From: Pseudomonadota bacterium
GTDB taxonomy: Bacteria > Pseudomonadota > Gammaproteobacteria > Eutrophobiales > Eutrophobiaceae
DNA length: 64,000 nt
NCBI GenBank assembly: GCA_013112535.1
Contig: JABFGI010000003.1
Coordinates: 18,895-82,894, forward strand
Reading direction: 5' to 3'
In this document: piece after piece, positions 6,278 to 41,022 of the stretch
How positions within the stretch are numbered: position 1 is the first letter of the stretch
How the letters are laid out: the number at the start of each line of letters is the position of its first letter
The notes under the pieces: generated by a model
What the model was told of the DNA's origin: nothing
What the model saw: only the letters and a program-made list of their open reading frames with translations
The model's database searches: none
Program-made: the position numbers and the translations under genes

Positions 6278-8980
6278 ATGATTACAGGATTAGTAAAAAA
6301 AATATTTGGTTCTCGAAATGATCGAGTTATCAAAAAATTAAACAAGACAGTAGCGCAAGTTAACTCCGTTGAAGAAGAGTTTAAGTCTTTAAATGACAGC
6401 GACTTTCCAGAAAAAACAAAACAGTTTAAAGAAAGAATTCAACAAGGAGAAAGTCTGGATAATATTTTGCCTGAGGCTTTTGCATTAGTAAGAGAAGCAG
6501 GCCTGCGAGTATTAAACATGCGCCACTTTGATGTGCAGTTAATCGGCGCAATGGTATTACATAATGGCAATATTGCTGAAATGCGGACAGGTGAGGGTAA
6601 AACACTGGTCGCTACATTAGCAGCATATTTGAATGCCCTGTCAGGTTCTGGTGTTCATGTCATTACAGTTAATGATTATCTGGCGAAACGTGATTCAGAA
6701 TGGATGGGACAGATATATAATTTTCTTGGTTTAACGACAGGAGTAATTGTTAGTGGTCTATCTATAGAAGAAAGAAAAGCTGCTTATCAGTGCGATATTA
6801 CTTATGGTACAAACAATGAATTTGGTTTTGATTATTTGCGTGACAACATGGCGTTCAGTAATGAAGGTCGCGTACAAAGAGGTTTAAACTTTGCCATAGT
6901 TGATGAAGTCGATTCGATTCTTATTGATGAAGCAAGAACGCCATTAGTTATTTCAGGGATGGTCGATGACAAGTCAGATTTATACATAACTATTAATGCA
7001 TTAATTCCGAAGTTAGTTGTGCAAAAAATTGAAGATGGACCGGGTGATTTCACACTGGATGAAAAATCGAAGCAAGCATATTTTACCGAGGACGGCCATG
7101 ATCACATTGAACAACTATTAAGAGAACAAAATGTTCTTAAAGAAGATCAGGCATTATATGATCCGGTTAATATCAGTATTCTTCATCATTTGAATGCCGC
7201 ATTAAGAGCACATCACTTATTTAACAAAGACGTTGATTATATTGTTAAAGATGATGAAATTGTTATTGTTGATGAATTTACAGGTCGTACCATGCAAGGG
7301 CGCCGTTGGTCAGAAGGATTACACCAGGCAATTGAAGCGAAAGAAGGTGTAACGATACAAAATGAAAATCAGACTCTGGCATCAATAACGTATCAAAATT
7401 ATTTTCGCCTGTATTCCAAACTATCAGGTATGACTGGTACTGCAGATACGGAAGCATTTGAGTTTCAATCAATATATGGCCTGGAAGTAGTTATAATCCC
7501 GACTAATATGTCGATGATTCGTGATGATCAAAGCGATATTATCTTTTTAACTGCGAAAGAAAAATACGCAGCTATGATAGAAGATATAAAAGACTGCCAG
7601 TCAAAAGGACAACCCGTATTAGTAGGTACCGCTTCTATCGAAGTGTCAGAGTATTTATCAAATTTACTTAATAAAGAAAATATAAAACATCAGGTATTGA
7701 ATGCCAAATTTCATGAAAGAGAAGCAGAAATTATTGCACAGGCAGGCCAGACAGGTGCAATCACGATTGCAACTAATATGGCAGGCCGCGGTACTGATAT
7801 TGTTTTAGGTGGTAATTATGAATCAGAAATTAAATCATTAAATGAACCTGATCAGAAACAAGTTGATAAAATTAATGAAGAATGGAAACAACGCCATCAA
7901 CAAGTACTTGATAGCGGTGGTCTACACATTATTGGAACTGAACGTCATGAATCGCGCCGCATAGATAATCAACTTCGTGGCCGATCTGGTCGACAGGGCG
8001 ATCCAGGTTCCAGTCGTTTCTATCTATCATTAGAAGATAATTTAATGCGTATTTTTGCGTCTGATCGTATATCTTCAATTATGCAGAAGCTTGGTATGGA
8101 TGAAGGAGAAGCGATTGAATCTAAATTAGTGACCCGTGCAATTGAAAATGCGCAACGAAAAGTTGAAGCACATAATTTCGATATTCGTAAACATCTACTT
8201 GAATATGATGATGTTGCCAATGATCAGCGGAAAGTAATTTATGAACAAAGAAATGAGTTACTTGATGAGGAAGATGTTTCCGAACAAGTCAATGATATAC
8301 GTTCTGAAGTTATTGAAGGGGTGATTGATAATTATATTCCCCGCGGCAGTATGGAAGAAATGTGGGATATCAGTGGTTTAACAGATGCATTTCAACATGA
8401 ATTTGATTTGGTTGTTGATATTGATTCATGGCTTAAGCAGGATAAATCTCTACATGAAGAAGCACTTCGTGAAAAAATTCATGCAGCCATGGAAAAAGTT
8501 GTTAAAGATAAAGAAGAAATGATTACTTCTGAATTGATGCGACGTGTAGAAAAGCAAATTATGCTCGATGTGTTAGACAGGCATTGGAAAGAGCATCTTG
8601 TTAATATGGATCATCTGAGACAAGGTATACAGTTAAGAAGCTTTGCAGGTAAAAACCCAAAACAGGAATATAAGCGTGAAGCTTTTGAATTGTTTGTGCA
8701 AATGCTCGAAGCTATGAAACACGATGTTGTTGTTTTTCTATCAAGAGTTAATATCAGAACTGAACAAGACGTAGAATTGGCTGAAAACCAGGAACATGAA
8801 CAAAACATGAACTTTAATCATGCTTCTGCGCCCAGTAGTCTGAACCCGGGTGTTCCGGAGCAAGCATCGCCGCCTGCGGAAAAACCTTATACACGTAGTA
8901 AACCAAAAGTTGGACGTAATGAACCATGCCCGTGTGGTTCAGGCAAAAAATTTAAGCAATGTCATGGAAGATTAAGTTAA
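6278..8980 (+). CDS. secA: preprotein translocase ATPase SecA
   Basis: 900 aa. N-terminus [25 protein letters not shown]-like motor domains and a C-terminal zinc-binding [14 protein letters not shown] motif. Confidence 0.97.
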
Positions 8981-9032
8981 AAAAAATGAACTTATTAATT
9001 TCTAACTTTATCAATTGAAATAAGTAATTTTT

Positions 9033-10253
9033 ATGTCGGTTGGTCTGGAATTTCCTTCATCACTAGTCCCCATTAAAGGTGTTCGACTGGCATCTACATC
9101 TGCAAACATATACTCGAATAAAAGAAATGACCTTCTCTTAATAGAACTGGATAAAGGCACGGTTACTTCAGCTGTATTTACCAGGAATATATTCTGTGCA
9201 GCCCCGGTTAAAATTGCCAAAGAAAATGTTAATAATTTTAAACCACGCTACCTACTGATTAATTCAGGTAATGCAAATGCAGGTACTGGCGAGAAAGGTA
9301 TTATCCATGCCAAAAGTACTTGTCAGTCATTAGCAACAATAACTGGATGTAAAATGTCACAAATTTTACCATTCTCGACAGGTGTAATAGGTGAAGATTT
9401 ACCAGTAGAAAAAATTAATCAATCATTACCTGAATTAGTAAATAAATTATCTAATGATGCATGGTTAGAAGCAGCACAGGCGATTATGACAACTGATACA
9501 ATTCCGAAAGCAATTTCAAGACAAGTAATTCTTAATGGAGTTGATATTAACCTTACTGGAATTGCGAAAGGTGCAGGTATGATAAAGCCAAATATGGCTA
9601 CGATGTTATCCTTTATAGCAACTGATGCGAATATTAGTAAAGAAGCTCTTGATATAGCAATAGCAAATGCTGTCAATAAAAGTTTTAATAGAATTACAAT
9701 TGATGGAGATACTTCTACAAATGATGCATGTGCTATTTTTGCTACAGGCAAAGCGAAAAATAATTTAATAGATAATTGCAATAGTGACGATTTTATTGAA
9801 TTTGAAAGAGCAGTCATAAATATTTGTTGTGACCTTGCGCAAGCAATTGTCAGGGATGGTGAAGGTGCGACAAAATTTATTTCTATCGAAGTTAGTAAAG
9901 GCAAGGATCAAGATGAATGCCTAGGTGTAGCTTATAAAATAGCGGAGTCTCCTTTGGTAAAAACAGCGTTTACTGCTTCTGACCCAAACTGGGGTAGAAT
10001 CCTTGCCGCAATTGGAAACTCGGGGATTAATGATTTAAATATCAATAATGTCAGTGTTTATCTAGATGATGTCTGTATTGTTGATAATGGAGAGCGCTCA
10101 AAAACTTATACAGAAGAGAGTGGTAAAAAAGTAATGGTTCAGGAAGAAATAAAGTTATCAGTTAATCTAAATAGAGGTGCTTGCAAAGAAGAAATATGGA
10201 CAACCGATTTATCTCATGAATATATCACTATTAACGCAGAATACCGTACTTGA
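9033..10253 (+). CDS. argJ: bifunctional glutamate N-acetyltransferase / amino-acid acetyltransferase ArgJ
   Basis: 406 aa. ATMLSFIATDA autoproteolytic-site region typical of ArgJ. secA-argJ-mutT order as in Pseudomonas. Confidence 0.9.
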   Translation: MSVGLEFPSSLVPIKGVRLASTSANIYSNKRNDLLLIELDKGTVTSAVFTRNIFCAAPVKIAKENVNNFKPRYLLINSGNANAGTGEKGIIHAKSTCQSLATITGCKMSQILPFSTGVIGEDLPVEKINQSLPELVNKLSNDAWLEAAQAIMTTDTIPKAISRQVILNGVDINLTGIAKGAGMIKPNMATMLSFIATDANISKEALDIAIANAVNKSFNRITIDGDTSTNDACAIFATGKAKNNLIDNCNSDDFIEFERAVINICCDLAQAIVRDGEGATKFISIEVSKGKDQDECLGVAYKIAESPLVKTAFTASDPNWGRILAAIGNSGINDLNINNVSVYLDDVCIVDNGERSKTYTEESGKKVMVQEEIKLSVNLNRGACKEEIWTTDLSHEYITINAEYRT

Positions 10254-11198
10254 GTGAATACCCGAACACATGTTGCCGTTGGAGTCATATTTCATCCAGA
10301 TAAAAATAAAGTTTTAATAACCAGGAGATCGGCCAATCAACATCTTGCTGGTTTATGGGAATTTCCAGGTGGGAAAGTTGAAAAAAATGAAAGTGTTGTT
10401 TCTGCTTTACATCGTGAATTACATGAAGAATTGGGGATAACGGTCAAAAGTACAAAGAAGTTAACAAGAGTGTCTTATGATTACCCGGACAAAAAAGTTT
10501 TACTGGATGTTTTTAAAGTGTATGAGTGGGATGGAAATCCAATTAGCAGGGAAAATCAGAAAATAGTCTGGTCAAATTTAAAACAACTGAATAATTATGC
10601 TTTTCCTGAAGCAAATAAACACATTATTCAAACACTATCATTAGGATCAATATATGTAATAAGCCCTCCATCCTGTAATGATACAAATAGATTCATTTCT
10701 GTACTTGATGAATGTTTTTCCACAGGTGTTAAAATTTTTCAATTAAGGTTATATCAGAAGTATGAACCTGAGTTTTCCCAAATAGTATCAAAAATAATCA
10801 GGTTAGCAGAAAAATATGATGCAAAAATAATACTTAATGGTCTTGCATCAGATGTAAGTGAATATAATGTTAATGGTATTCACTTGAATTCCAGAGAGCT
10901 TTTTAAGCATAGAACCAGACCTATTAGCGAAGAATATATCCTGGGAGCATCTTGTCATAATGAAAAAGAACTTATCCATGCTGAACAAATAAATGTAAAT
11001 TACGCTTTCATTTCTCCTGTATGCAAAACAGCAAGTCATCCTGAAAAGGTAGCGATAGGCTGGGATAATTTCTGTGAAATGAGTAAAAAAGTTAATTTTC
11101 CAGTCTATGCTCTTGGTGGAATGAAACCATCAGAACTTGAATTAGCAAGAAAATATAACGCCTATGGTGTTGCGATGATAGGTGCTATCTGGGATTAG
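10254..11198 (+). CDS. mutT: Nudix hydrolase (MutT-like 8-oxo-dGTP diphosphatase) fused to a TenI/ThiE-like thiamine-phosphate-synthase-fold domain
   Basis: GTG start abutting the argJ stop. Nudix box GGKVEKNESVVSALHRELHEELGI. The C-terminal 170 aa carry a ThiE/TenI-like VYALGGM...GAYGVAMIGAIW motif. Confidence 0.75.
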   Translation: MNTRTHVAVGVIFHPDKNKVLITRRSANQHLAGLWEFPGGKVEKNESVVSALHRELHEELGITVKSTKKLTRVSYDYPDKKVLLDVFKVYEWDGNPISRENQKIVWSNLKQLNNYAFPEANKHIIQTLSLGSIYVISPPSCNDTNRFISVLDECFSTGVKIFQLRLYQKYEPEFSQIVSKIIRLAEKYDAKIILNGLASDVSEYNVNGIHLNSRELFKHRTRPISEEYILGASCHNEKELIHAEQINVNYAFISPVCKTASHPEKVAIGWDNFCEMSKKVNFPVYALGGMKPSELELARKYNAYGVAMIGAIWD

Positions 11199-11232
11199 AC
11201 ACAGTAAGTGAAAGGGTAACTTTCGGTAGCAC

Positions 11233-11424
11233 TTAATGCTTTTTTATAGTATCCGGTTCAAAACCATTATCTATCGACCTGGACTCTGTTATTGCATAGC
11301 TTTCATTAATCCATTGTCCCAGATCAATTAATCTACAGCGCTTCGAGCAAAAAGGTCGATACTGATTTGAACTATCAAGTTCAGACTCTTTTTCACATAT
11401 CGGGCAAGATGCTACTTTATTCAT
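11233..11424 (-). CDS. yacG: DNA gyrase inhibitor YacG (zinc ribbon)
   Basis: CPICEK...CSKRCRLIDLGQW C4 zinc-ribbon. Start taken at the ATG overlapping the zapD stop (ATGA), MNKVASCPIC. Confidence 0.8.
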   Translation of the reverse strand: MNKVASCPICEKESELDSSNQYRPFCSKRCRLIDLGQWINESYAITESRSIDNGFEPDTIKKH

Positions 11425-12194
11425 AAAATGCAACAATGAAGTTCAAATTCAACATCGCTTGATGTTTGAGATGGTCTATTAATGGTAGACGTTTCTTCCA
11501 TAAAACGAATTGTGAATCGATGTTTGCCTCCACTGATTTCAGGATAATAACGACTGGCTGAAGGCAAAATAACCCTTATCAGTTGGCAGGCAATATCTGA
11601 TTCTATCGGTTTTTGGAAAAAACCGGATTCAGCTTTTTCTTTAACAGGGTTAGTACTATTTCTAATCATATCCAATGCTAAATGAGTCGATTTCTTAATA
11701 GGTTCTATGTCTTTGGACCAGTTCTCCAGGTCCTGTAGCTGTTTAACATTAGCCTGGTTTAGCCAGTAATGAAGTCTGGGTAAATCAAAGTTACATGTGC
11801 CACCTGGAATACTCGTGCGTTGTTTAAAACTAGTGACAAGTTCATCTTCCTTTAATGAGTTACCTGGCTGATAAGAGCTGCTTTTTAGCTCCAGGGATAA
11901 TTCGCCAATATCGCTGTTTATTTGTCTAAGTCTTGTTTGGTCGACAGCAGGGTTATTTTCAAGAGCAGTTAACATTAATGAATGACGCTCCAATTCTTTA
12001 ATTAACTCCGTTTTAAAATCAGAGCGACTAAGTAGATCATTGATTTCCAGAAGTGACTCCAGAATATTTCTATAATCCCATTTGCTTATAGATTCTTGTG
12101 AACGAAATGCAATAAGATCGAACAGGTGTTCTAAACGTAACAGGTTTCTCATCCTCTCGTTTAATGGTTGTTCGAATATTATTTTATTTTGCAT
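11421..12194 (-). CDS. zapD: cell division protein ZapD
   Basis: 257 aa. N-terminus MQNKIIFEQPLNERMRNLLRLEHLF is typical of ZapD/YacF. coaE-zapD-yacG synteny. Confidence 0.8.
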   Translation of the reverse strand: MQNKIIFEQPLNERMRNLLRLEHLFDLIAFRSQESISKWDYRNILESLLEINDLLSRSDFKTELIKELERHSLMLTALENNPAVDQTRLRQINSDIGELSLELKSSSYQPGNSLKEDELVTSFKQRTSIPGGTCNFDLPRLHYWLNQANVKQLQDLENWSKDIEPIKKSTHLALDMIRNSTNPVKEKAESGFFQKPIESDIACQLIRVILPSASRYYPEISGGKHRFTIRFMEETSTINRPSQTSSDVEFELHCCIL

Positions 12195-12223
12195 GATATA
12201 GAAAAATTTTGACGATCAATTAA

Positions 12224-12847
12224 TTATTCATTTTTTTCTTTATAATAGCTACTTAGTTCAAGGAATTTTTCGTGTAATTTAACAACTGAATTATTAAGCT
12301 CATTTATACCAAGCTTGTTCTCTATGACAAAATCAGCATATTTTAGTCGTTGCTTGCGACTAATCTGACTTTTTAATATTTTCTCGATATTCTTTTCGGA
12401 TGTATTGTCTCGATGATGTGCTCTTTCGATCTGTATGGTTTCTGGGGCATCGACAACTAATATTTTATCAAAACGCTCCATTGCTCTGGTTTCTATTAGT
12501 AGTGGTATCACTATCAAGCAATATGGATAGTTTAGCCTGGAAACCTGATTTTCTATTTCCTGATAAATGACTGGATGTAAAATTTCTTCGAGCTTTTTTT
12601 TAGCACTATCATCATGAAAAATGATAGAGCGTAATTTTTGTCGATTAAGCGTTCCTGACTTTGTTAATAGTTCATTACCAAACTCATGAATAATTTCATT
12701 TAGGCAAGGTCGGTCAGGTTTGACAATATCTCTCGATATAATGTCCGAATCGATGATCGGAACGCCAAGTTGGTGAAACATTGATGATACAGTCGATTTT
12801 CCACTGCCTATTCCACCCGTTAATGCAATACGTAAAACAGCCGACAT
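12224..12847 (-). CDS. coaE: dephospho-CoA kinase
   Basis: P-loop GGIGSGKST at the N-terminus. 207 aa. Position downstream of pilD is conserved in many Proteobacteria. Confidence 0.85.
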   Translation of the reverse strand: MSAVLRIALTGGIGSGKSTVSSMFHQLGVPIIDSDIISRDIVKPDRPCLNEIIHEFGNELLTKSGTLNRQKLRSIIFHDDSAKKKLEEILHPVIYQEIENQVSRLNYPYCLIVIPLLIETRAMERFDKILVVDAPETIQIERAHHRDNTSEKNIEKILKSQISRKQRLKYADFVIENKLGINELNNSVVKLHEKFLELSSYYKEKNE

Positions 12848-30595: not shown

Positions 30596-30997
30596 TTACA
30601 AACCTGCACCAGCTTGACACTGAGCAGCAGTTGCACCGCCAGCAGTTCCAGACGTTGCAGTATATGTTACAGTTGCGGAAGTGACTGTAGCGACAACAGT
30701 ACAAGATCCTTCAGCATAGGTTACGGTTGCCGCCGCCGCGCTTTCAGAAACACTGGCTAAAGTGAGAGCGGCATCAGTAACAGCATTTAATTCCGTACAG
30801 CCTACACCGGTATCTACACAGACTTGAGATTGCGATACATAAGGGTTAATCCCTTTCATTGCTGCGCCACCGTGTGATTCAGCGACATATGCACGATATG
30901 ATGGAATCGCCACTGCAGCAAGAATACCGATAATTGCAACAACGATCATAAGTTCGATCAAGGTAAAACCTTGTTGATATGTGTTTTTATACTTCAT
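30596..30997 (-). CDS. pilA: type IVa major pilin paralog 1 (PilA-like)
   Basis: Start set at [10 protein letters not shown]|[22 protein letters not shown], preceded by an AAGGAG SD 7 nt upstream. Class III signal (G|F, E+5). C-terminal Cys pair forming a disulfide loop. The ORF-track N-terminal extension was rejected. Confidence 0.85.
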
Positions 30998-31200
30998 TGA
31001 TCCGCTCCTTCTACTCTTCACAACTGTTTTTTTATTGTTCAGTGTAAACAGATTCAACGCTGTTGGTATTTCTAGCGTTTAACCCCCTATGGTTGTGAGT
31101 AGATGAGTATTTGATGTCCCTTTGTCAAAGCAAACGTCCTGATGTAATTGGCATTTAAAACATCTAAACACATACTTAATAATAATTTTTATTCTTATTT

Positions 31201-31251: not shown

Positions 31252-31665
31252 TTATAGACCTGCGCCAGCCTGACACTGAGCAGCGGTCGCACCACCACCA
31301 CCACCGGTGGTTGCAGTAAAGGTTACAGCTGCTGCAGTAACTGTTGCGACAACCTGACAAGAACCTTCGTTATAGGTTACGGTTGCAGCAGCAGCGTTTT
31401 CAGAAACGCTAGCTAGGGTAACGTTAGCATCAGTGGTCGCATTTAATTCAGTACAACCAACACCGGTTTCTACACAAACTTGAGCTTGAGATACGAAAGG
31501 TCCAGCACCTTTCATTGCAGCACCACCATGTGATTCAGCAACATAGGCACGGTATGATGGAATTGCGACTGCCGCAAGAATACCGATAATCGCAACAACG
31601 ATCATTAATTCGATCAGGGTAAAACCCTGTTCGCTTTTGCTATTCATTTTTTTCATTTGTTTCAT
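31252..31665 (-). CDS. pilA: type IVa major pilin paralog 2 (PilA-like)
   Basis: MKQMKKMNSKSEQG|[34 protein letters not shown] 7 nt before the first ATG; an internal ATG start is also possible. About 85% identical to paralog 1 over the mature protein. Confidence 0.85.
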   Translation of the reverse strand: MKQMKKMNSKSEQGFTLIELMIVVAIIGILAAVAIPSYRAYVAESHGGAAMKGAGPFVSQAQVCVETGVGCTELNATTDANVTLASVSENAAAATVTYNEGSCQVVATVTAAAVTFTATTGGGGGATAAQCQAGAGL

Positions 31666-31736
31666 TATTAGTTCTCCGTTATTTAAACTGATTACAAAAA
31701 CTATAGTTTTTACCCCAGTTTGAGGTGATTACTGTT

Positions 31737-31754
31737 AAGCAGGCCTCATGCCAG
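31737..31754 (-). promoter_or_regulatory. sigma-54 (RpoN) -24/-12 promoter for pilin paralog 2
   Basis: Minus strand reads cTGGCATgaggccTGCTT, i.e. GG-N10-GC with spacing and flanks close to TGGCAC-N5-TTGCW. About 70-85 bp upstream of the pilin ATG. pilS-pilR are adjacent. Confidence 0.55.
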
Positions 31755-31857
31755 TTCGGTAGAAATATCGATATATTAAAAATTATTAATTTATTCAATT
31801 AGTTATAGTTTTTTTGAAAAATAGTTTGATTAGTTTTTAATCTATATACGAAGACTA

Positions 31858-31893
31858 CTGTTGTCAAAAAATGACAACTTTGTCATTTTTTTA
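31858..31893. promoter_or_regulatory. three alternating TTGTCA/TGACAA (TGTC-core) half-sites, a candidate PilR upstream activating sequence
   Basis: ctgTTGTCAaaaaaTGACAActtTGTCAttttttt lies about 110-140 bp upstream of the sigma-54 -24 element. Published PilR sites are TGTC-containing repeats. Confidence 0.35.
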
Positions 31894-32079
31894 CTATAAA
31901 TCTTATTAACTTAATCTAATTCAAATTGATTAGAGCGCAATTGTGAATTTGATAACATAAGTATTTATTGAATTATATTGTCAGTCATACATGATAGATT
32001 TATTTCTTGAGTTGAAAAATGATTTTAATCAAGAGTTATGTCGAATATAAACCAACTGAATATTTAAATAACATTGTAA

Positions 32080-32787
32080 ATGCAATCAAAACGACACGAA
32101 TTAAAGTTCTATCTGAATGAGATTCAATCTGAAAGATCAATACATCAATTAAACTCGTTGATGGATGTCGATGCATACTGCAAAAATCAACAAAGTTATC
32201 GTGTTCGTAGTCTTTATTTTGATTCGTATGATGATGAGTGCCTGTACGAAAAACAGTCAGGAAACTTATTAAGAAAAAAAATTAGATTACGTACCTACGA
32301 TGGTGGTGGTAATGAACCTGTGAAATTTGAAATAAAACGAAAACAGGGGCAAATTGTAAAAAAAGACGTCGCTATAATTACCAAAGAAGAAGCTGAACAG
32401 GTATGTCTAGGTAATTTTTCAGTATTATTGAATAAAAATAATGCTGTCTTGAATGAAATTTACACTACTTTTGTTACTAAACTCTATAAACCTAAAGTGA
32501 TCGTTGAATATAATCGGACTGCTTTTGTATTACCTGTCTCGAATATAAGAGTGACGTTAGATCAGGATCTAAGTTCGAATATTAATCACCTTGATCTGTT
32601 TTCACCTGTAAATAGTATGATGCCGGTGATTCTTGAAGGTAAACAAATACTGGAAATAAAGTACGATGATTTTTTTCCCGGCTATTTAAAGAAAGTATTA
32701 TCATCACTTAGTTCGGAAAGAATGGCCATCAGCAAATACACGTTAGCCAGACGATTCCATAAAGTCCATAAATGGGAGGACAATTAA
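32080..32787 (+). CDS. VTC-domain protein (CYTH-like / polyphosphate-polymerase-domain family)
   Basis: 235 aa. HELKFYL...RVRSLYFDS...KKIRLRTY...KFEIKRK alternating basic/acidic beta-strand motifs are typical of the triphosphate-tunnel VTC/CYTH fold. Overlaps the next ORF by 16 nt. Confidence 0.7.
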   Translation: MQSKRHELKFYLNEIQSERSIHQLNSLMDVDAYCKNQQSYRVRSLYFDSYDDECLYEKQSGNLLRKKIRLRTYDGGGNEPVKFEIKRKQGQIVKKDVAIITKEEAEQVCLGNFSVLLNKNNAVLNEIYTTFVTKLYKPKVIVEYNRTAFVLPVSNIRVTLDQDLSSNINHLDLFSPVNSMMPVILEGKQILEIKYDDFFPGYLKKVLSSLSSERMAISKYTLARRFHKVHKWEDN

Positions 32788-33488
32788 TCATGGATCAAGT
32801 TACCTTTGCAGATGTACTGCAAAAAAGTTTCATTGCAATGTCAATGGGTAGTACAGACAGGATCACTACGTTAAATATTTTATTGAATATATCAATGTCG
32901 TTTTTGATTGGTATGTTTATATTTTATATTTATAAAAAAACCTATCAGGGTGTTTTATATCAACGCAGTTTTAATATTTCACTGGTCCTGGCAAGTACGG
33001 TGACATCCATGATTATTATGACTATCAGTGGCAACTTGATTCTTTCCCTGGGAATGGTTGGCGCATTGTCAATTGTTCGTTTCAGAACGCCCGTCAAGGA
33101 TAGCATGGATTTAATCTTCTTATTTTGGGCAATAAGTGTTGGTATAGCTAATGGCGTCGGCTATTTTAATATCTCTATTGTAGGTTCGATCATGATCGCA
33201 ATATTTATGTTGCTGTTGACTCGTTCCGGTAAAGGTGTAGCTGATACGTTTTTGTTGGTGCTTCAATTGTCTGATACATCAAAGGAAGAAAACATTCTTG
33301 GTGAAATTCAGAAACAAACCGACTTGTGTTCAATAAAATCAAAAACAGTTTCAGATACAGGGACAGAGATTACTTTAGAAGTAAAAGTAAAGCAGGGGCA
33401 AACTGAGTTCATGAACAGCCTGCAAGCAGATGCAGGTGTTGTTCGTGCTACTCTTGTTTCTTATGATCAGGATTTATCTTCAGTATAG
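32772..33488 (+). CDS. DUF4956-like polytopic membrane protein (VTC-associated)
   Basis: 238 aa with about four TM helices and an SIVRFRTPVKD motif. Transcriptionally coupled to the VTC gene. Confidence 0.55.
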   Translation: MGGQLIMDQVTFADVLQKSFIAMSMGSTDRITTLNILLNISMSFLIGMFIFYIYKKTYQGVLYQRSFNISLVLASTVTSMIIMTISGNLILSLGMVGALSIVRFRTPVKDSMDLIFLFWAISVGIANGVGYFNISIVGSIMIAIFMLLLTRSGKGVADTFLLVLQLSDTSKEENILGEIQKQTDLCSIKSKTVSDTGTEITLEVKVKQGQTEFMNSLQADAGVVRATLVSYDQDLSSV

Positions 33489-34488
33489 AAGTCTAATCTT
33501 GTTTTCTATAGTAAAGAAACTGTGCTTCTCTAGCGTCTTTATAACGACGAGCACAGTTGCTGTCGCCGTAACAAATGGTACGGGTACAGATTATTGTATA
33601 AATCAGGGCTTCAAAAATACATACTATTTACTGGATTATAAAGATATCACTGCAGCCTCTGTTTTTTTTCAAGAAATCTCCTTGAAAAATACAAGCATGG
33701 AATCACGACTAGTGATTAAAAAAGGAACAAGAGCTAGAGGTATTACATATTTCGACGATAATAATCTGACATTACTAACAGCAAAAAAAGAGTTAATTCA
33801 TGTAATAGATAATAATCTACCGGAATTTAGAGAGGATAAAGAACAAATCATTTTTTATGATCGAACCTTGCTAAATGAGAGTTCAAAAAGTTTTGTAGTA
33901 AAAAATTATAACAGGAAACTTACGCCTTTCGATAAACACCCTTTGTTTGGTCGAATAAAACGAAAAGAAAGGCCCGTGCTTATGGAATTGCTTTCAGGTA
34001 TAGGTATAAGCAAATTACAGTCGATTTCAGGAGTTATAAATATTAACTCCGATGAAGAGGTTAAATTAATTACGCATTTTGCAATACCGTATGGTGCTTT
34101 CACGTTTAGTATATTCAATCTGGATGATTTTGGAGTGCCGAATACTTCTTTTTTATTAAAGTTTGAAATGTTTTCTAACGAGGACAACTCTCTTACAGTG
34201 TTCGAAAAAGAAAGTCTTAACAAGCTTTTTTGTCAGGTTAATAAGCAGTTTCAAATTTCTTTCCCACATGCCGAATCATCTCCATGGTTTGGCTATGCTG
34301 AATATCATAAATTAGCATCAGAGATTTTACCAAGTCGTACATTATTCCGAAAATACCCATTGCTTTTTTCTGTTGGGCAGATTGTTTGTCTGAGCTTTAT
34401 CGGTTTTCTTTTTATTTATATTGTTTTAGGAAGATACTCAAGGCGAGACAATTTTCGTAAAGTTTCAAAATCTAAAGTTTATTTATGA
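33430..34488 (+). CDS. hypothetical protein with C-terminal TM anchor (start uncertain; alternative ATG near 33697)
   Basis: Long ORF with no recognisable domain. C-terminal hydrophobic helix (IVCLSFIGFLFIYIVLG). Its stop overlaps the CotH start (ATGA). Confidence 0.45.
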   Translation: MQVLFVLLLFLMIRIYLQYRSLILFSIVKKLCFSSVFITTSTVAVAVTNGTGTDYCINQGFKNTYYLLDYKDITAASVFFQEISLKNTSMESRLVIKKGTRARGITYFDDNNLTLLTAKKELIHVIDNNLPEFREDKEQIIFYDRTLLNESSKSFVVKNYNRKLTPFDKHPLFGRIKRKERPVLMELLSGIGISKLQSISGVININSDEEVKLITHFAIPYGAFTFSIFNLDDFGVPNTSFLLKFEMFSNEDNSLTVFEKESLNKLFCQVNKQFQISFPHAESSPWFGYAEYHKLASEILPSRTLFRKYPLLFSVGQIVCLSFIGFLFIYIVLGRYSRRDNFRKVSKSKVYL

Positions 34489-37196
34489 GAGTTTATCGTC
34501 CCCGTCATTGTCCCTTCTGGCCTGTGTTTTTAGCATTATTATTACTGGCTGCTTTAAGTAGTTTTATTTTTGGCGGCGTTACCGAAATGATGAAGTATGA
34601 AAAGGCAACGACAACAGCGATCAGGTTTAACTATACGCTTGATAGTTTCCATCATTTTATTAATGAATATATAACACGACAATATCAAAAACTTACAGTA
34701 AAACCCTTACCCGAACAGACCAACTTACCTTCATTTTATTTATATACAGATGAGCGAGATTTAGAGTCATTAGAATCAAACTTACCTGCAAGTGGTAAAG
34801 TCGAATTTAAAAAAAGTCACATAAGAATAGATAAACCAAGTTTTTCAAGTGAAGCGGAATTTCGCTTTCGAGGAGGAATGGATTTACATTGGTTATATGA
34901 AAAAAAATCATTAAGAATAAAGTTGCCACAATTTAGTACCTATTTGAATGAGCGCCAGTTTAATTTGGTCAACCCATCAACAATTCATACAGTTACTGAT
35001 TGGGTAACTTATGATATGTCGCGTTCGATAGGGCTATTGACGCCAGACTATTTTCCGGCACGTTTATTCATTAATAATGAAACAAACGGACTACACTTTT
35101 TTTTAAGTAAAGTAGATGAATCATTTTTGCGTAAGAACAATAGAATGCCTGGAAGTATTTATTCCGGAGATACTATCTATACGCCAAATCCTTTTGGTTT
35201 GGATGAGGGGATAGGTGAGAAAGTTTTTGCCCATAATGGGAGGCCCTCTTTATGGTTTGACGATAGATTATGGAAGAAAGATGCTTCAAGAAATATGGAA
35301 TCAACTGAAAGTCGTGAAGATATAAAGTTATTCATTAAGTCTGTAAACGAACCAGATCCATTGGTTTTTATGGAAAAATTTGATACTTACTTTGATAAAA
35401 AACAATTCTATCGCTTTTGGGCATTAGATAAATTAGTTGGTAGTAACCATCATGATTTGTTTCATAATCACCGTATTTATTTTGACCCTTATTTAGGTAA
35501 ATTTGAACCGATTGAGTGGGATGTTCGATTCTGGACAATTGCTAAATCACTTTCAGTCACTCCTTTTTTTAAACAAATTCTGTTAAACCCTGTATTGAGA
35601 TATGAGCATGATCTTGTACTTTATGATCTTTGGAGAAAATTTAATGTCGATAATGTTAATGACATGATTGATGGGGCAGATAATAGTATAAAAAATGAAT
35701 TAGCGGCGGATCCTTATCGACAACAGCCTGACGAATACCTTAAATTTGGTGGGTTTGGTAAAGCTTTGCCTTTTACTATGGATGAATATACGAATGCTAT
35801 TAAATCGTTGAAAAAAATTTATAGCTTTAGATATGGACTTATCGAGCAAAGGTTAAATTTTAATACTTCCTATTTTCAAATTGAAAAAATAACTGAGAAA
35901 GAGAGCAGGGTTTCTATTGCATTGTCCGGAAATAGCCCCATTGAATTTAATCCATGGACGATTATTCCAAAGCCTATCCATAAAGATGTTAAGTTATTTC
36001 GTGTCTATAATAATAAGTTGTATCCTGTATTAGATAAAGAGCAATCGGATCGATTGTATCCGGGAATATCAATAATGGAAGGTTATAGATCTTCTAATGT
36101 ATCAAATGGTATGGAAACAAGAGTAATGGAGTCATACAGACAATCGCCATTACATTATCAATATTTAATAAAAGGAGTAAACAGCTCCGACTTAATTGAA
36201 ACTAAAAAACTGACGGGGACAAATTCAATTACTTCAAATGTAGTCGCAATCGAAAATGTAGAACAATTACCTGATGATGTAAGTACAGTCTCTTTACATC
36301 CCTGGGAATTATTAACACAGGAAGAGATTTCAACGAGAGAGATCGTGTTGTCGGGCGAAATAGAAGTTAATCAGGATCGCTCTTTCACAAAAGAACAAAC
36401 AGTGAAGATATTACCCGGGACCGTGTTTAAACTGGCAAGAGCCAGTTCATTGTATTTTTATGGGAAAGTGATAGGAAAAGGAACAGAAACTTTACCGATT
36501 AAATTTGAACAAAAAGAACCAGGTCAGGCCTGGGGCAGTATCGTTATTCAGGGTAAAGAAGCTTCCGGTAGTATTTTGAGCTATATCAGCGTTAGTGGTG
36601 GATCTACAGCAAAACGTAACCTGATTGCCTATCCAGGCCAGTTGAATATTCACGATGTAAATTCTTTTCAACTAGATCATTGTTTTATTAGTAATAATTC
36701 TGTGGGCGATGATGCTTTGCATGTCGCCTACAGTAATGGCTCTATTGATTATTGTGAGTTCAATAATACAGCTTTTGATGCATTGGATATGGATATTGTT
36801 GATGTTTCAGTAACAAATTCTCATTTTTCAAATATTGGCAATGATGCAATTGATTTGATGAATTCAAAAGCAAATATTAGTTATGTTGATATTAATGGGA
36901 CGGGTGATAAATGTATTTCAGTGGGCGAGGCAAGTGAAGTAAACGTTGAACATAGTCAACTTAAAGCATGTTCGATTGGAATAGCAGTTAAAGATCAATC
37001 AAAATTACACGTTGATGATATTGTATTTTCAGTTGAACAAGGAAACGCTATAGCACTTTATCGTAAGAACTCACGTTACAGTAATGGAGGTGAAGTATAC
37101 GGAGAAAGGCTTTATGGAATTAATGAGCAGGATATAAACGTCGGTGATTATTCCGTAAATAATATTAAACAAAGTGCATATCACTCTTTTAAATAA
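34485..37196 (+). CDS. CotH-family atypical protein kinase with N-terminal signal anchor and C-terminal right-handed parallel beta-helix (PbH1) repeats
   Basis: 903 aa. CotH-like stretch (LRIKLPQ, NERQFNLVNP, HNHRIYFDPYLGKFEPIEWDVRFW). The C-terminus has 22-aa periodic repeats: NNSVGDDALHVAYSNGSI / NNTAFDALDMDIVDVSV / SNIGNDAIDLMNSKANI / NGTGDKCISVGEASEVNV. Confidence 0.75.
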   Translation: MRVYRPRHCPFWPVFLALLLLAALSSFIFGGVTEMMKYEKATTTAIRFNYTLDSFHHFINEYITRQYQKLTVKPLPEQTNLPSFYLYTDERDLESLESNLPASGKVEFKKSHIRIDKPSFSSEAEFRFRGGMDLHWLYEKKSLRIKLPQFSTYLNERQFNLVNPSTIHTVTDWVTYDMSRSIGLLTPDYFPARLFINNETNGLHFFLSKVDESFLRKNNRMPGSIYSGDTIYTPNPFGLDEGIGEKVFAHNGRPSLWFDDRLWKKDASRNMESTESREDIKLFIKSVNEPDPLVFMEKFDTYFDKKQFYRFWALDKLVGSNHHDLFHNHRIYFDPYLGKFEPIEWDVRFWTIAKSLSVTPFFKQILLNPVLRYEHDLVLYDLWRKFNVDNVNDMIDGADNSIKNELAADPYRQQPDEYLKFGGFGKALPFTMDEYTNAIKSLKKIYSFRYGLIEQRLNFNTSYFQIEKITEKESRVSIALSGNSPIEFNPWTIIPKPIHKDVKLFRVYNNKLYPVLDKEQSDRLYPGISIMEGYRSSNVSNGMETRVMESYRQSPLHYQYLIKGVNSSDLIETKKLTGTNSITSNVVAIENVEQLPDDVSTVSLHPWELLTQEEISTREIVLSGEIEVNQDRSFTKEQTVKILPGTVFKLARASSLYFYGKVIGKGTETLPIKFEQKEPGQAWGSIVIQGKEASGSILSYISVSGGSTAKRNLIAYPGQLNIHDVNSFQLDHCFISNNSVGDDALHVAYSNGSIDYCEFNNTAFDALDMDIVDVSVTNSHFSNIGNDAIDLMNSKANISYVDINGTGDKCISVGEASEVNVEHSQLKACSIGIAVKDQSKLHVDDIVFSVEQGNAIALYRKNSRYSNGGEVYGERLYGINEQDINVGDYSVNNIKQSAYHSFK

Positions 37197-37226
37197 ATAA
37201 AATAGTAATTATGAAAATAAGAGACA

Positions 37227-37691
37227 ATGTATAATTTCAAAGGTCTATGTATAAGTCATCTGGTATTAGCTTGTTCGGTAGCTATTTGTGCTGTGTTTGC
37301 AATATGGTTGAATTCGGATACAGAGGTCGAAGAGTATCGTGCTTTTATGCTTGTGTATGATAACTTTTTTTTTACAAATGAAAAAGAAGAAGCAAAAAAA
37401 TTTCGTCATAAAAAATTAGCAGAATTAAAAGGCAATAAAATTGACAATATGTGGTTGCCTATTGTCGAAGTAGAAGAAGATGGTCCATACAAGATTCAAT
37501 TATATATACGCATTTTGGCGGGTGACCCAGAAAAAGAGTTTACATATATACAATTAGCAGCCCTTATATATATAGTCTTTCCTGAAGAGTCTCAACGTCA
37601 GCAGAGAAATAAATTTTTTAAAGAAATACAGGAAATTGAAGGTATTCATTATCATTTATTAGAAAAATATAATTTGCTTGTAAGTCAATAA
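37227..37691 (+). CDS. hypothetical small protein with N-terminal signal/TM segment
   Basis: 154-aa ORF with no recognisable domains. Lies at the edge of the VTC/CotH block. Confidence 0.4.
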   Translation: MYNFKGLCISHLVLACSVAICAVFAIWLNSDTEVEEYRAFMLVYDNFFFTNEKEEAKKFRHKKLAELKGNKIDNMWLPIVEVEEDGPYKIQLYIRILAGDPEKEFTYIQLAALIYIVFPEESQRQQRNKFFKEIQEIEGIHYHLLEKYNLLVSQ

Positions 37692-37709
37692 AGCCTCTCA
37701 AACAAAGTT

Positions 37710-38483
37710 CTATGATGAAATCTTCTGTAAAATAGCCTTCATTAATTTCGGATTCGCAGAAACAATATTTCCACTTTTCATAAAATCAACACCACCGGAT
37801 ATTTCGCTATTAATTCCTCCCGCTTCCTGTACGATTAATACGCCGGCCGCAATATCCCACGGTTTTAAACCATATTCCCAAAAACCATCGAATCGTCCAC
37901 ATGCCACGTAAGCTAAATCAAGCGATGCGACACCTAATCTTCTGATACCGGAAATACTGGGAAATAAGGATTTAAAGCTTTTTATGAAGTTATCGACTTC
38001 CGGGTTTTCTCCAAAGGGAAAACCAGTGGCAAGTAATGCGCCTTCAAGTGTTTTCTGAGGGCTAACACGAATCTTTTTATTATTCAGTTGCGCACCTTTC
38101 CCTTTTGATGCGGTAAATAATTCCTGTTTAACAGGGTCATAAATAACTGCCTGATCAAGACGTCCTCTGTATTCCAGGGCGATAGAAACGGCAAAATGTG
38201 GAATGCCATGTAAAAAATTTGTTGTGCCATCAAGGGGATCAATAATCCAGACATAATCGCTATCACCAGATTTACCTGACTCTTCTGCTAAAAAAGCGTG
38301 ATCAGGATAAGCGTTCTTGATGGTTTCTATGATGATATGTTCAGCTTGTCTATCCACTTCAGTGACATAGTCATTTTTTCCTTTTATATCGACTGAAATA
38401 TCACTGACACGATCCATTTCACGTACAATGGAATCGCCGGCAGCTCTGGCTGCGCGGATAGCAATATTGAGCATAGGGTGCAT
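37710..38483 (-). CDS. suhB: inositol monophosphatase SuhB
   Basis: 257 aa. IMPase motifs (EESG, WIIDPLDGTTNF, DAAAG equivalent). Divergent from trmJ as in E. coli. Confidence 0.9.
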   Translation of the reverse strand: MHPMLNIAIRAARAAGDSIVREMDRVSDISVDIKGKNDYVTEVDRQAEHIIIETIKNAYPDHAFLAEESGKSGDSDYVWIIDPLDGTTNFLHGIPHFAVSIALEYRGRLDQAVIYDPVKQELFTASKGKGAQLNNKKIRVSPQKTLEGALLATGFPFGENPEVDNFIKSFKSLFPSISGIRRLGVASLDLAYVACGRFDGFWEYGLKPWDIAAGVLIVQEAGGINSEISGGVDFMKSGNIVSANPKLMKAILQKISS

Positions 38484-39314: not shown

Positions 39315-40046
39315 ATGGAAAATGAATTATTTGACGAGATGTATAAAGTCGAATCTCGGCACTGGTGGTTTGTTGCAAGACGAAAAATTATTGGAAATGT
39401 AATAGAACAATTAAGACTTGAAAAGAATTCGTCTATTCTCGATGCAGGTTGTGGTAACGGTGATAATCTTGAAATGTTATCTAGATACGGTGACGTGATG
39501 GCTATGGAAAGAGAGGAAAATGCTTTGCAGAAAGCGCAGGCAAGGAATATTGGTAACGTATTTAAAGGAGAACTGCCAAGTCATATTCACGCAGATATTC
39601 AGAAAGATAAAGACTTAATAGTCTTACTGGACGTTTTAGAGCACATTGATGATGATGCCGGTAGTTTGGAAGCACTAGGGAATTATATGAACGATAACGG
39701 TAGTCTTGTTCTTACTGTGCCGGCATATCAGTTTTTATGGACTAGCCATGATGAACAGCATCATCATAAAAGAAGATATACGGTGACTCAGTTAAAAACA
39801 CTCATTGAAAATAATGGCTGGAATGTTAGTTATATTTCGTATTTTAATACCTTATTGTTTCCATTAGCACTAATAGACAGAATAAAACAAAAGTGGTTTT
39901 CGTCAGGTGAAAATGAGGGATTAAAAATGCCTTCCACATGTATAAATGCTATTTTTGAAAAAATATTCAGTTTTGAATCAAGGTTTATTGGTAAAATTGC
40001 ATTTCCTTTTGGTCTTTCAATAATTGCCGTTGCAAAGAAAACATAA
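39315..40046 (+). CDS. class I SAM-dependent methyltransferase
   Basis: Motif I ILDAGCGNGDN and motif post-I VLLDVLEHIDDD. 243 aa. Confidence 0.75.
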   Translation: MENELFDEMYKVESRHWWFVARRKIIGNVIEQLRLEKNSSILDAGCGNGDNLEMLSRYGDVMAMEREENALQKAQARNIGNVFKGELPSHIHADIQKDKDLIVLLDVLEHIDDDAGSLEALGNYMNDNGSLVLTVPAYQFLWTSHDEQHHHKRRYTVTQLKTLIENNGWNVSYISYFNTLLFPLALIDRIKQKWFSSGENEGLKMPSTCINAIFEKIFSFESRFIGKIAFPFGLSIIAVAKKT

Positions 40047-40047
40047 C

Positions 40048-41022
40048 ATGGAAAGAAAAAAAACAAATAGCGAAAAAATATTGTCGGTAGTTGCGCCTGC
40101 TTATAATGAAGTGGATGGATTGGATGAGTTTTATTCCAGGCTGGTTGAGGCAGTAAAAGATCTGGAGCTTCAGCTGGAAATCATTTATGTCAATGATGGC
40201 AGCAAAGATGGCACGCTCGAAGTAATGAGTAAGCAACACAATAGCGATTCACGAATCACAATTATTGACTTAAGTAGAAACTTTGGCAAAGAGGTAGCGC
40301 TGACCGCAGGACTGGATCATGCAACAGGTGATGCTATTGTTGTAATAGATACCGATCTCCAGGATCCGCCTGAGTTGATTCCGGAATTAGTCAGAAAATG
40401 GACTGAAGGTTTTGATGTTGTTAATGCAAAAAGAATAAAACGTAAGGGTGAAACCGCATTTAAAAAAATCACTTCATTTGTGTACTATCGTTTTTTATAT
40501 CAACTTAGTGATATAAAAATTCCAAAAGATACAGGTGATTTTCGTTTATTGAGTCGTAAAGCATTAAATGCATTACTGACATTACGCGAGAAACACCGAT
40601 ATATGAAAGGTTTGTTTGCCTGGGTAGGATATTCGCAAGCTGAAATTACATATGAGCGCGATGAACGTTATGCCGGCGAAACAAAATGGAATTTTTTAGG
40701 TTTACTGGATTTAGCGTTTGAGGGTCTTACTTCGTTCTCAGTGTTACCATTAAGACTTGCGTCATTACTGGGTTTCTTATCTGCATTCGCAGGTCTATTT
40801 TTTGCCATAATTATTATTTTAAAGAAAATAATGTTTGGAGATCCGGTAGCAGGTTATCCCTCGTTAGTGGTCTTGATAACATTTATAGGCGGAGTTCAAT
40901 TATTGGCTTTGGGAATAATTGGTGAATATCTCGGTCGAGTATTCAATGAAACAAAGAACAGACCTCTTTATTTTGTAAAAGACATAAAACCTTCCGATTA
41001 TTTAGCAGATAATAAAGATTAA
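40048..41022 (+). CDS. GT2-family polyprenyl-phosphate glycosyltransferase (ArnC/GtrB/DPM1-like) with two C-terminal TM helices
   Basis: SVVAPAYNE...VNDGSKDGT...DTDLQDPPE (DXD)...RLLSR motifs. Start at the ATG 1 nt after the methyltransferase stop. Confidence 0.8.
   Translation: MERKKTNSEKILSVVAPAYNEVDGLDEFYSRLVEAVKDLELQLEIIYVNDGSKDGTLEVMSKQHNSDSRITIIDLSRNFGKEVALTAGLDHATGDAIVVIDTDLQDPPELIPELVRKWTEGFDVVNAKRIKRKGETAFKKITSFVYYRFLYQLSDIKIPKDTGDFRLLSRKALNALLTLREKHRYMKGLFAWVGYSQAEITYERDERYAGETKWNFLGLLDLAFEGLTSFSVLPLRLASLLGFLSAFAGLFFAIIIILKKIMFGDPVAGYPSLVVLITFIGGVQLLALGIIGEYLGRVFNETKNRPLYFVKDIKPSDYLADNKD

Follow-up and report, generated by a model that had tools for sequence, protein, structure and literature searches.

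CotH of the Bacillus spore coat (5jd9, 5jda) is an atypical Ser/Thr kinase; in the B. subtilis protein D228 is catalytic and D251 binds metal (PMC7821199). A CotH gene is also found among the pel accessory genes of Streptococcus intermedius, where SIR_1594 encodes a CotH-FN3 protein, SIR_1593 a VTC-like protein, SIR_1592 a DUF4956 protein and SIR_1591 a glycoside hydrolase (PMC7112168, PMC12345266). Deletion of the CotH or the DUF4956 gene altered Pel levels and aggregation (PMC12345266). The trio of CotH, VTC-like and DUF4956 proteins has been noted only as Gram-positive pel 'accessory genes' (PMC7112168), and the authors of the S. intermedius work did not find it outside pel loci (PMC12345266). 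Here we analysed a 64,000-nucleotide stretch of gammaproteobacterial DNA (contig JABFGI010000003.1, positions 18,895 to 82,894; hereafter the window), in which a gene at 34485..37196 on the plus strand encodes a CotH kinase-like domain fused to a right-handed parallel beta-helix. It is the fourth of five co-directional genes that overlap or nearly abut. The trio is widespread in diderm bacteria without pel nearby, which extends the earlier Gram-positive picture. We propose, with slightly less than even confidence, that the CotH–beta-helix protein is a periplasmic enzyme and the extracytoplasmic effector of a five-gene, polyphosphate-linked module that modifies an envelope polymer.

The reading frame at 34485-37196 is open across 903 codons, and its 903-aa product is identical, start included, to a database protein from a proteobacterial metagenome-assembled genome (MAG; P0001). 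Pfam CotH (PF08757) matched residues 127-449 (E 1.2e-22, 81.3 bits against a cut-off of 23.8), and NCBIfam gave no match for the protein. The sole sequence-level relative in the PDB was B. cereus CotH (family profile against 5jd9, E 9e-20). The AlphaFold2 model, built from an input alignment of 98 homologues, had a predicted local distance difference test (pLDDT) score of 91.3 and a predicted template modelling (pTM) score of 0.91. It shows an N-terminal helix (residues 11-41), a kinase-like domain (~83-458; 34731..35858), an all-beta, sandwich-like domain defined by DSSP strands (~460-600; 35862..36284) and the beta-helix (~619-890; 36339..37154). The middle domain had no Pfam match. In Foldseek, the N-terminal half was matched to B. 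cereus CotH (5jd9/5jda; E 2.6e-15, target-normalised TM score 0.82-0.83). The C-terminal part was matched to right-handed beta-helix enzymes, namely GH87 6k0v (E 4e-6), alginate lyase 6kfn and polygalacturonase 1nhc, and further to AlgE4, AlgG, tailspikes and NosD, with pertactin-type proteins low in the list.

The beta-helix comprises about 270 aa in 11-12 coils, and DSSP assigned three strands per coil over residues 619-890. Its self-similarity was highest at a lag of 22 residues and second highest at 44 (z = 3.7 against shuffles); the lag-22 score was matched by 79 of 2000 shuffles when any lag was counted. Pfam Beta_helix (PF13229) did not match the window protein, either whole (E<=1) or as its C-terminal 300 aa alone (E<=0.001); homologues 45-72% identical to it scored 37-54 bits, above the cut-off of 25.9. 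A sequence-only reading of this DNA had proposed a CotH kinase with a C-terminal parallel beta-helix and an N-terminal anchor, and our analysis confirmed that layout. Residues 8-36 (34506..34592) are indeed the only transmembrane-like segment, overlapping the N-terminal helix of the model, and structure prediction gave a right-handed beta-helix. The repeat of about 22 aa described in that reading also held, but it covers residues ~619-890 and not just the last ~200 aa. The reading had omitted the beta-sandwich between kinase and beta-helix and had missed the operon context (VTC, DUF4956 and the tunnel protein described below), which is the main clue to function.

The first gene of the cassette (32080..32787, plus strand) encodes a polyphosphate-polymerase-like VTC-domain protein of 235 aa (Pfam VTC, PF09359, E 1.4e-37). 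It has no transmembrane segment and is cytoplasmic. Compared with yeast Vtc4 (3g3q), its R69, R71 and K86 correspond to R264, R266 and K281, and its Y144, R146 and R157 to Y359, R361 and R373, the tunnel residues of Vtc4. The HELKF, ILEIK and SKY motifs are present. The second gene (32772..33488, plus strand) overlaps the first by 16 nt and encodes a DUF4956 membrane protein of 238 aa (Pfam DUF4956, E 2.5e-11). By hydropathy it has about four transmembrane segments followed by a soluble C-terminal domain, and it gave a weak MgtC/SapB-like match. The streptococcal DUF4956 homologue has an MgtC-like transmembrane domain and an ACT domain (PMC12345266). In the yeast VTC complex (3g3q, 8i6v) the catalytic tunnel of Vtc4 is combined with a transmembrane channel, so that synthesis is coupled to translocation. 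The cassette likewise couples a VTC domain with the tunnel Arg, Lys and Tyr residues genetically to a membrane protein. Unlike the yeast proteins, the bacterial one lacks SPX and the DUF202-type transmembrane domain, and its membrane partner is the unrelated DUF4956. By analogy, this gene coupling suggests that synthesis could be linked to translocation.

The third gene (33463..34488, plus strand) encodes a protein that we call TTMp. It has 341 aa from the database start, the frame being open from 33430 (up to 352 aa), and its stop overlaps the start of the CotH–beta-helix gene (ATGA). Neither TTMp nor any of 40 homologues had a Pfam domain, and NCBIfam matched neither TTMp nor the VTC protein nor the product of the fifth gene. 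The AlphaFold2 model of TTMp (pLDDT 80.7) was matched by Foldseek to THTPA 3bhd (E 9e-7), YgiF 5a60, AtTTM3, CyaB, a Sulfolobus TTM and VTC 8i6v. There were 50 PDB matches at E<=1e-3; those listed were mainly TTM/CYTH/VTC or RNA-triphosphatase folds, and also Mediator Med18/20. The triphosphate-tunnel fold was revealed by the fold search alone, as comparison of the TTMp family with the window VTC protein (hhalign) and with PDB sequences (profile search) gave no sequence-level relation. TTMp has a signal-like N-terminus, invariant C45 and C257, and a C-terminal transmembrane segment; in 31 of 33 sequences, K and R abound in the tail beyond that segment. It lacks the canonical ExExK, strand 1 reading YYLLD. 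Its conserved charges are E110, E127, K147, D157-K158-H159, K166-R167-K168, K233 and E235. By its model and these sequence features, TTMp is an exported tunnel protein anchored at the C-terminus. Going by the literature searches made, it seems to represent an exported TTM family that had not been described before and is restricted to this cassette.

The fifth gene (37227..37691, plus strand) encodes a small membrane-anchored protein of 154 aa, with a transmembrane segment at residues 4-31 followed by a soluble domain. It is homologous to the product of the same-position gene in other loci.

To see how constant this arrangement is, we carried out a hidden Markov model census of 49 genome loci, 24 of which had at least 3.5 kb on both sides of the fusion gene. 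VTC and DUF4956 lay within 6 kb of it in 22 of these 24 well-flanked loci, the TTMp gene was present in 17 (~70%) and the small gene in 16. Loci with this linkage come from Gammaproteobacteria, Campylobacterota, Desulfobacterota, Bacteroidota, Planctomycetota and other groups. All keep one cyclic gene order, with VTC first in the clade of the window and CotH first elsewhere. No pel or DUF4832 genes were seen in the Pfam-scanned parts of the window (~12.8-19.5 and 27.6-45 kb) or in loci L001-L009. The cassette therefore resembles the Gram-positive pel module in its linked exported CotH, VTC-type polymerase and DUF4956 protein, and in a connection to polysaccharide. It differs in carrying a beta-helix in place of FN3, in having no separate DUF4832 hydrolase, in the additional TTMp and small genes, and in its diderm hosts, where the compartment is the periplasm. 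Our literature searches (CotH with beta-helix; DUF4956; CotH with polyphosphate) returned no study of the fusion or of a Gram-negative cassette, and a search on extracellular polyphosphate export gave nothing specific.

Next, we considered on which side of the membrane the fusion protein lies. The anchor at residues 8-36 is preceded by a basic N-terminus (R2, R5, R7). Of 88 family members, 60 had the more positive flank on the N-terminal side of the anchor and 14 had it on the C-terminal side, with a mean net charge of +2.1 on the N-flank and +0.8 on the C-flank. The plain K+R count around the anchor showed no bias (2.05 vs 2.15). In one metagenomic family member, P0225 (1176 aa), the C-terminus of CotH–beta-helix runs on into the soluble, TPR-like portion of the small protein, and no transmembrane segment lies between them. 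The soluble parts of the two proteins therefore share a compartment, and the fusion implies that its products act together. The anchor of the standalone small protein also predicts an outward-facing domain. From these sequence features, the fusion protein probably has a type II (N-in, C-out) inner-membrane anchor with its bulk in the periplasm. Taking the anchor charge bias, P0225 and the export features of TTMp together, a consistent reading is that three of the five proteins work in the periplasm, with VTC as the cytoplasmic member and DUF4956 as the one within the membrane. The export proposed in the sequence-only reading is borne out to this extent, by the charge bias and the export signals of the partners.

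In the reverse topology (N-out, C-in), the system would be cytoplasmic and tethered to the membrane, and CotH would use ATP (adenosine triphosphate) or polyphosphate inside the cell. The unbiased K+R count would fit this, as would the 25 of 98 representatives without a strong N-terminal hydrophobic segment, some of which may have miscalled starts. The net-charge bias of 60 to 14 favours N-in, however, and TTMp carries a signal-like N-terminus, an invariant Cys pair and a positive cytoplasmic tail. The CotH homologue of streptococci has been described as a secreted protein, and enzymes with this type of beta-helix nearly always work outside the cytoplasm. We regard the reverse topology as improbable.

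We then looked at the conservation of the kinase residues in 98 full-length representatives with less than 50% mutual identity. These were chosen via the beta-helix only and are therefore unbiased regarding the kinase. All 98 kept both E212 and N328; D346, the counterpart of B. subtilis D251, was retained in 94, H327 in 90, H322 in 88 and K141 in 85. In the first 98-sequence alignment D346 was invariant. The catalytic loop, as aligned to 5jd9, reads H322-H323-D324-x-x-H327-N328-H329 followed by W345-D346 (nt 35448-35522, plus strand). The Bacillus catalytic Asp occupies the position five residues before the conserved Asn (N-5), and alignments set it opposite H322 or H323. Here N-5 is H323, a variable position with His or aromatic residues, and an Asp (D324) is found at N-4. 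Conservation of D324 reaches at least 90% in close relatives, and 74 of the 98 wider representatives have it. With Bacillus CotH the window protein thus shares the fold and Pfam family, the metal-binding Asn/Asp pair (N328, D346), the HN motif, E212 and the KKS lysine. It differs in its low identity (16-17%), in a His-rich HHDxxHNH loop with the Asp shifted by one residue, and in being an anchored, outward-facing protein of a Gram-negative non-sporeformer with ~450 extra residues, which make up the sandwich and the beta-helix. There are no CotB/CotG-like neighbours at the window locus; the neighbours are VTC, DUF4956, TTMp and pilins. Since N328, E212 and D346 are nearly invariant, selection acts on the kinase domain for catalysis or for nucleotide or metal binding. 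From the conserved residues, the CotH domain is probably a working phosphotransferase with a catalytic loop unlike the characterised one. The conservation of catalytic residues, on which the sequence-only reading had made its kinase assignment depend, therefore holds for E212, N328, D346 and mostly K141, but not for the catalytic Asp in its usual place.

The highest conservation in the protein was found not in the kinase loop but in the beta-helix. Its residues D742, D743, D765, D768, D770, D787, D790, D808, K809, E815, K836 and K861 (8 Asp, 1 Glu and 3 Lys) are invariant in all 98 representatives, and H746, N786, D837 and N862 are nearly so. The part of this cluster from D742 to D837 lies at nt 36705-36995 on the plus strand. 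These residues stack across successive coils (DDALH / DALDMD / NDAIDL / DKCISVGE / KD). The pattern points to a catalytic site or a Ca2+-dependent polyanion site, and by analogy it resembles the sites, built from Ca2+/Asp and Lys, of Pel9A, the alginate lyases and other lyases with a beta-helix, which are represented among the fold matches. The compared enzymes (6k0v, 1nhc, Pel9A 1ru4, 6kfn/7dmk, AlgE4/AlgG and NosD) share the fold and the coils of ~22 residues, and the stacked Asp and Lys resemble both the Ca2+/catalytic sites of the lyases and the Asp triads of GH28/GH87. Identity to them is only 7-13%, however, and no family motif was matched: neither the GH28 (NTD/DD/GHG/RIK) nor the AlgG (DPHD) motif could be placed in the beta-helix, and the protein had no significant sequence match to GH28, GH87, PL1/6/9 or another CAZy-type family. 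Beta-helices with this invariant acidic site may form a new subfamily, either catalytic or polyanion-binding. The description of the beta-helix as 'glycan-recognising' in the sequence-only reading was overstated, as the Asp/Lys cluster resembles an active site or a Ca2+ site more than it does an ordinary binding module.

These residues raise the question of whether catalysis lies mainly with the beta-helix, as a Ca2+-dependent lyase, hydrolase or epimerase for an acidic or cationic exopolysaccharide, and CotH is a glycan kinase or a non-catalytic scaffold. The protein would then be the fused Gram-negative counterpart of the streptococcal pair of CotH and glycoside hydrolase (DUF4832). The invariant Asp/Lys cluster, the variable kinase D324 and the polysaccharide-active fold neighbours (GH87, GH28, PL6, PL9, alginate lyase and epimerases) speak for it, as do weak Glyco_hydro_28 and pectate-lyase-like Pfam matches in homologues and the polysaccharide genes that adjoin the cassette in locus L006. 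The streptococcal cassette also has an active glycoside hydrolase (PMC12345266). On the other hand, the failure to match a family catalytic motif, the lack of a significant CAZy-type match and the near-invariance of N328, E212 and D346 in the kinase, do not fit well, and a beta-helix alone would leave VTC and TTMp unexplained. We consider a beta-helix acting as main catalyst unlikely, though it overlaps our best explanation and is compatible with it rather than exclusive.

Charged clusters of this kind also bear on a non-enzymatic role, in which the protein would be a surface adhesin or structural protein like the CotH invasins of Mucorales, with the beta-helix as a stalk. Fungal CotH proteins do serve as surface ligands (PMC9973265). 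Beta-helices are common in adhesins, and the pertactin-type Foldseek matches, although low in the list, go in the same direction. However, the N-terminal transmembrane segment anchors the protein in the inner membrane and no outer-membrane targeting was seen; the invariant charged clusters in both domains suggest chemistry, and the gene sits in a tight operon with enzymes. An adhesin is in our view very improbable.

We now return to the polyphosphate-linked module, which we infer would work as follows. The VTC-like enzyme in the cytoplasm would turn ATP into polyphosphate, and DUF4956, by analogy with the yeast VTC complex, would take the chain or hand it outward. On the outer side TTMp would thread or trim it. 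The CotH–beta-helix enzyme would use the polyphosphate to modify an envelope polymer, which could be an exopolysaccharide or, in Gammaproteobacteria, perhaps pilin. Polyphosphate could be the phosphoryl donor where ATP is absent, or the polymer itself could be attached or processed. A cationic glycan might sit directly in the acidic groove of the beta-helix, or a polyanion might be bound there via Ca2+/Mg2+ as in pectate lyases. A (poly)phosphate ligand outside the cytoplasm is argued for because TTMp, with its tunnel fold, is built for export. The periplasm has no ATP pool. Because of this, and because the kinase fold is under purifying selection, is linked to VTC and is accompanied by an exported TTMp in ~70% of well-flanked loci, polyphosphate can be argued, indirectly, as the donor. 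The more specific form of the proposal, in which CotH is a polyphosphate-driven periplasmic kinase acting on exopolysaccharide or type IV pilin, with VTC and DUF4956 feeding the chain across the membrane and TTMp helping, we consider doubtful. Fam20B phosphorylates a sugar and provides a precedent for a glycan substrate in the superfamily. Fam20C and Fam20B are distantly related to CotH (PMC7821199) and show that a kinase-like fold can work outside the cytosol. In their case ATP is imported into the Golgi lumen, whereas a comparable supply to the periplasm is not known.

Several points weigh against this proposal. The donor of Bacillus CotH is ATP, and we know of no kinase-fold enzyme with a polyphosphate donor. 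To our knowledge, polyphosphate synthesis has not been tied by experiment to any VTC-domain protein of bacteria, nor transport to DUF4956, and by its sequence DUF4956 resembles MgtC, which would make it a regulator and not a channel. TTMp may only bind a ligand, since the canonical ExExK is missing. Because the N-5 Asp is missing and D324 is not universal, one member in four may lack activity or use another mechanism. The probable topology relies on the charge bias and on features of the partners, the plain K+R count being neutral. Finally, deletion of the VTC gene in S. intermedius had no aggregation phenotype (PMC12345266).

The genes next to the cassette bring in a further candidate substrate. 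Two tandem genes for major type IVa pilins (30596-31057 and 31252-31665, minus strand; N_methyl and pilin family matches) lie divergent from the cassette in the window, with PilS/PilR just upstream and PilBCD 15 kb away. Pilin genes, often tandem paralogues, are also immediate neighbours of the cassette in 15 or more further loci from Gammaproteobacteria (L008-L011, L013-L018, L021, L022, L034, L051 and L001/L019). Four arrangements occur: upstream divergent, upstream co-directional, downstream convergent, and downstream of a permuted cassette. Such adjacency was not seen in the loci of other phyla. Neisseria pilins bear phospho-form modifications, and pilA flanks are insertion hot spots in Pseudomonas. 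The adjacency may thus reflect a substrate, co-regulation or an insertion hot spot at the pilA flank.

With pilins as neighbours, CotH could also be a conventional ATP-dependent Ser/Thr kinase that acts on envelope proteins such as pilins, or a regulator of exopolysaccharide. The beta-helix would then serve for targeting only, and VTC and DUF4956 would belong to general phosphate metabolism. The CotH fold and most of the kinase residues are present, and the pilins recur beside the cassette in all four arrangements. For the Gram-positive pel system, control by protein phosphorylation was proposed (PMC7112168). Yet the protein apparently faces outward into a compartment free of ATP, and the near-obligate linkage to VTC and DUF4956 and the exported tunnel protein would be left unexplained. 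A beta-helix that is better conserved than the kinase loop would be odd for a targeting module, and the pilin adjacency does not extend beyond Gammaproteobacteria. A conventional kinase has, in our judgement, a small but real chance of being the right answer.

The divergent intergenic region between pilins and cassette (31666-32079) is AT-rich and 414 bp long. It contains a sigma-54-like -24/-12 element, TGGCATGAGGCCTGC, at 31739-31753 on the minus strand, facing the pilin gene. A palindrome, GTTGTCAAAAAATGACAAC (31860-31878), is followed by another TGTCA; these TGTC repeats resemble PilR-type binding sites. No clear cassette promoter was found in this region, where sigma-70-like matches were no commoner than in shuffles. 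Co-regulation of the cassette with pilA through sigma-54 was rejected, as the sole sigma-54-like site in the shared region points to the pilin gene. The G+C content of the cassette is 32-36%, against 38-42% in the flanks (window 32000-38000), and no tRNA gene was found across the window. We also rejected an origin as a mobile island: with no tRNA genes and a G+C content only slightly lower, there is too little to claim horizontal transfer. In Microbulbifer (L001), the cassette adjoins Y1 (REP-associated) transposase genes and toxin-antitoxin pairs.

Polysaccharide genes were seen near some cassettes and, together with the Gram-positive pel loci (PMC7112168, PMC12345266), speak for the proposed module. 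In one lineage (L006/L007) the cassette (8001-12445) is preceded by genes for a Wzm/Wzt ABC transporter, three GT4 glycosyltransferases and a methyltransferase. After it come sugar-nucleotide genes and one for an inorganic pyrophosphatase, so that the setting is of O-antigen or capsule type. In the window, two overlapping genes (39315-41022, plus strand), one for a methyltransferase of class I and the other for a glycosyltransferase of family GT2, lie ~1.6 kb downstream of the cassette, with suhB and a SpoU methylase in between; they may point to a polysaccharide link.

The architecture had been called unusual in the sequence-only reading, which took intracellular Bacillus CotH as the norm. 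Our searches do not support this. The initial homologue search returned more than 100 full-length relatives with 33-72% identity, nearly all pre-annotated as CotH and Beta_helix; the label 'CotH kinase family protein / right-handed beta helix' is already in use in databases. A word-indexed search with the C-terminal 300 aa gave only shortened fragments of the same family, and an exhaustive profile search with the beta-helix only was used instead. At E<=1e-3 it gave 6190 representatives, of which 533 reached E<=1e-30. The best 150 matches were mostly ~900 aa long with a C-terminal beta-helix, and sampled long members had CotH in nine of nine and Pfam Beta_helix in eight of nine. Exported CotH proteins have moreover been described in Mucorales (PMC9973265) and Streptococcus (PMC12345266), which makes Bacillus the exception.

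The hosts of the loci include Gammaproteobacteria, Campylobacterota, Desulfobacterota, SAR324, Bacteroidales, Planctomycetota, Verrucomicrobiota and further groups. Microbulbifer rhizosphaerae is the single cultured host, and almost all of the genomes are MAGs. Tandem CotH–beta-helix paralogues were found in SAR324 (L024, 3236-7721) and Planctomycetota (L043, 4920-10382). Some family members, such as the metagenomic representatives P0185 and P0189, have an N-terminal extension of 250-350 aa before CotH, and genome locus L030 encodes a member of 1152 aa. In one N-terminally extended member a lectin domain of the Laminin_G_3/ConA-like kind was found, which again hints at a carbohydrate as ligand.

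CotH–beta-helix proteins are thus a common and large but uncharacterised family, and the exported tunnel protein that accompanies them was previously unrecognised. Bacterial extracytoplasmic kinases have no obvious phosphoryl donor, as the cell exterior and the periplasm are free of ATP. Bacterial VTC-domain 'polyphosphate polymerases' and DUF4956 proteins are without a known role, and the route of polyphosphate to the cell surface is unexplained. The cassette joins a kinase fold, an inner and an outer triphosphate-tunnel protein and a membrane protein in one tightly conserved operon found in many phyla. Even if it is merely an accessory that modifies polysaccharide, it still annotates several hundred clusters of 'hypothetical' proteins. 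If the polyphosphate proposal is true, no extracytoplasmic kinase driven by polyphosphate would have preceded the CotH–beta-helix protein, and the cassette would provide the first dedicated exit route for bacterial polyphosphate.

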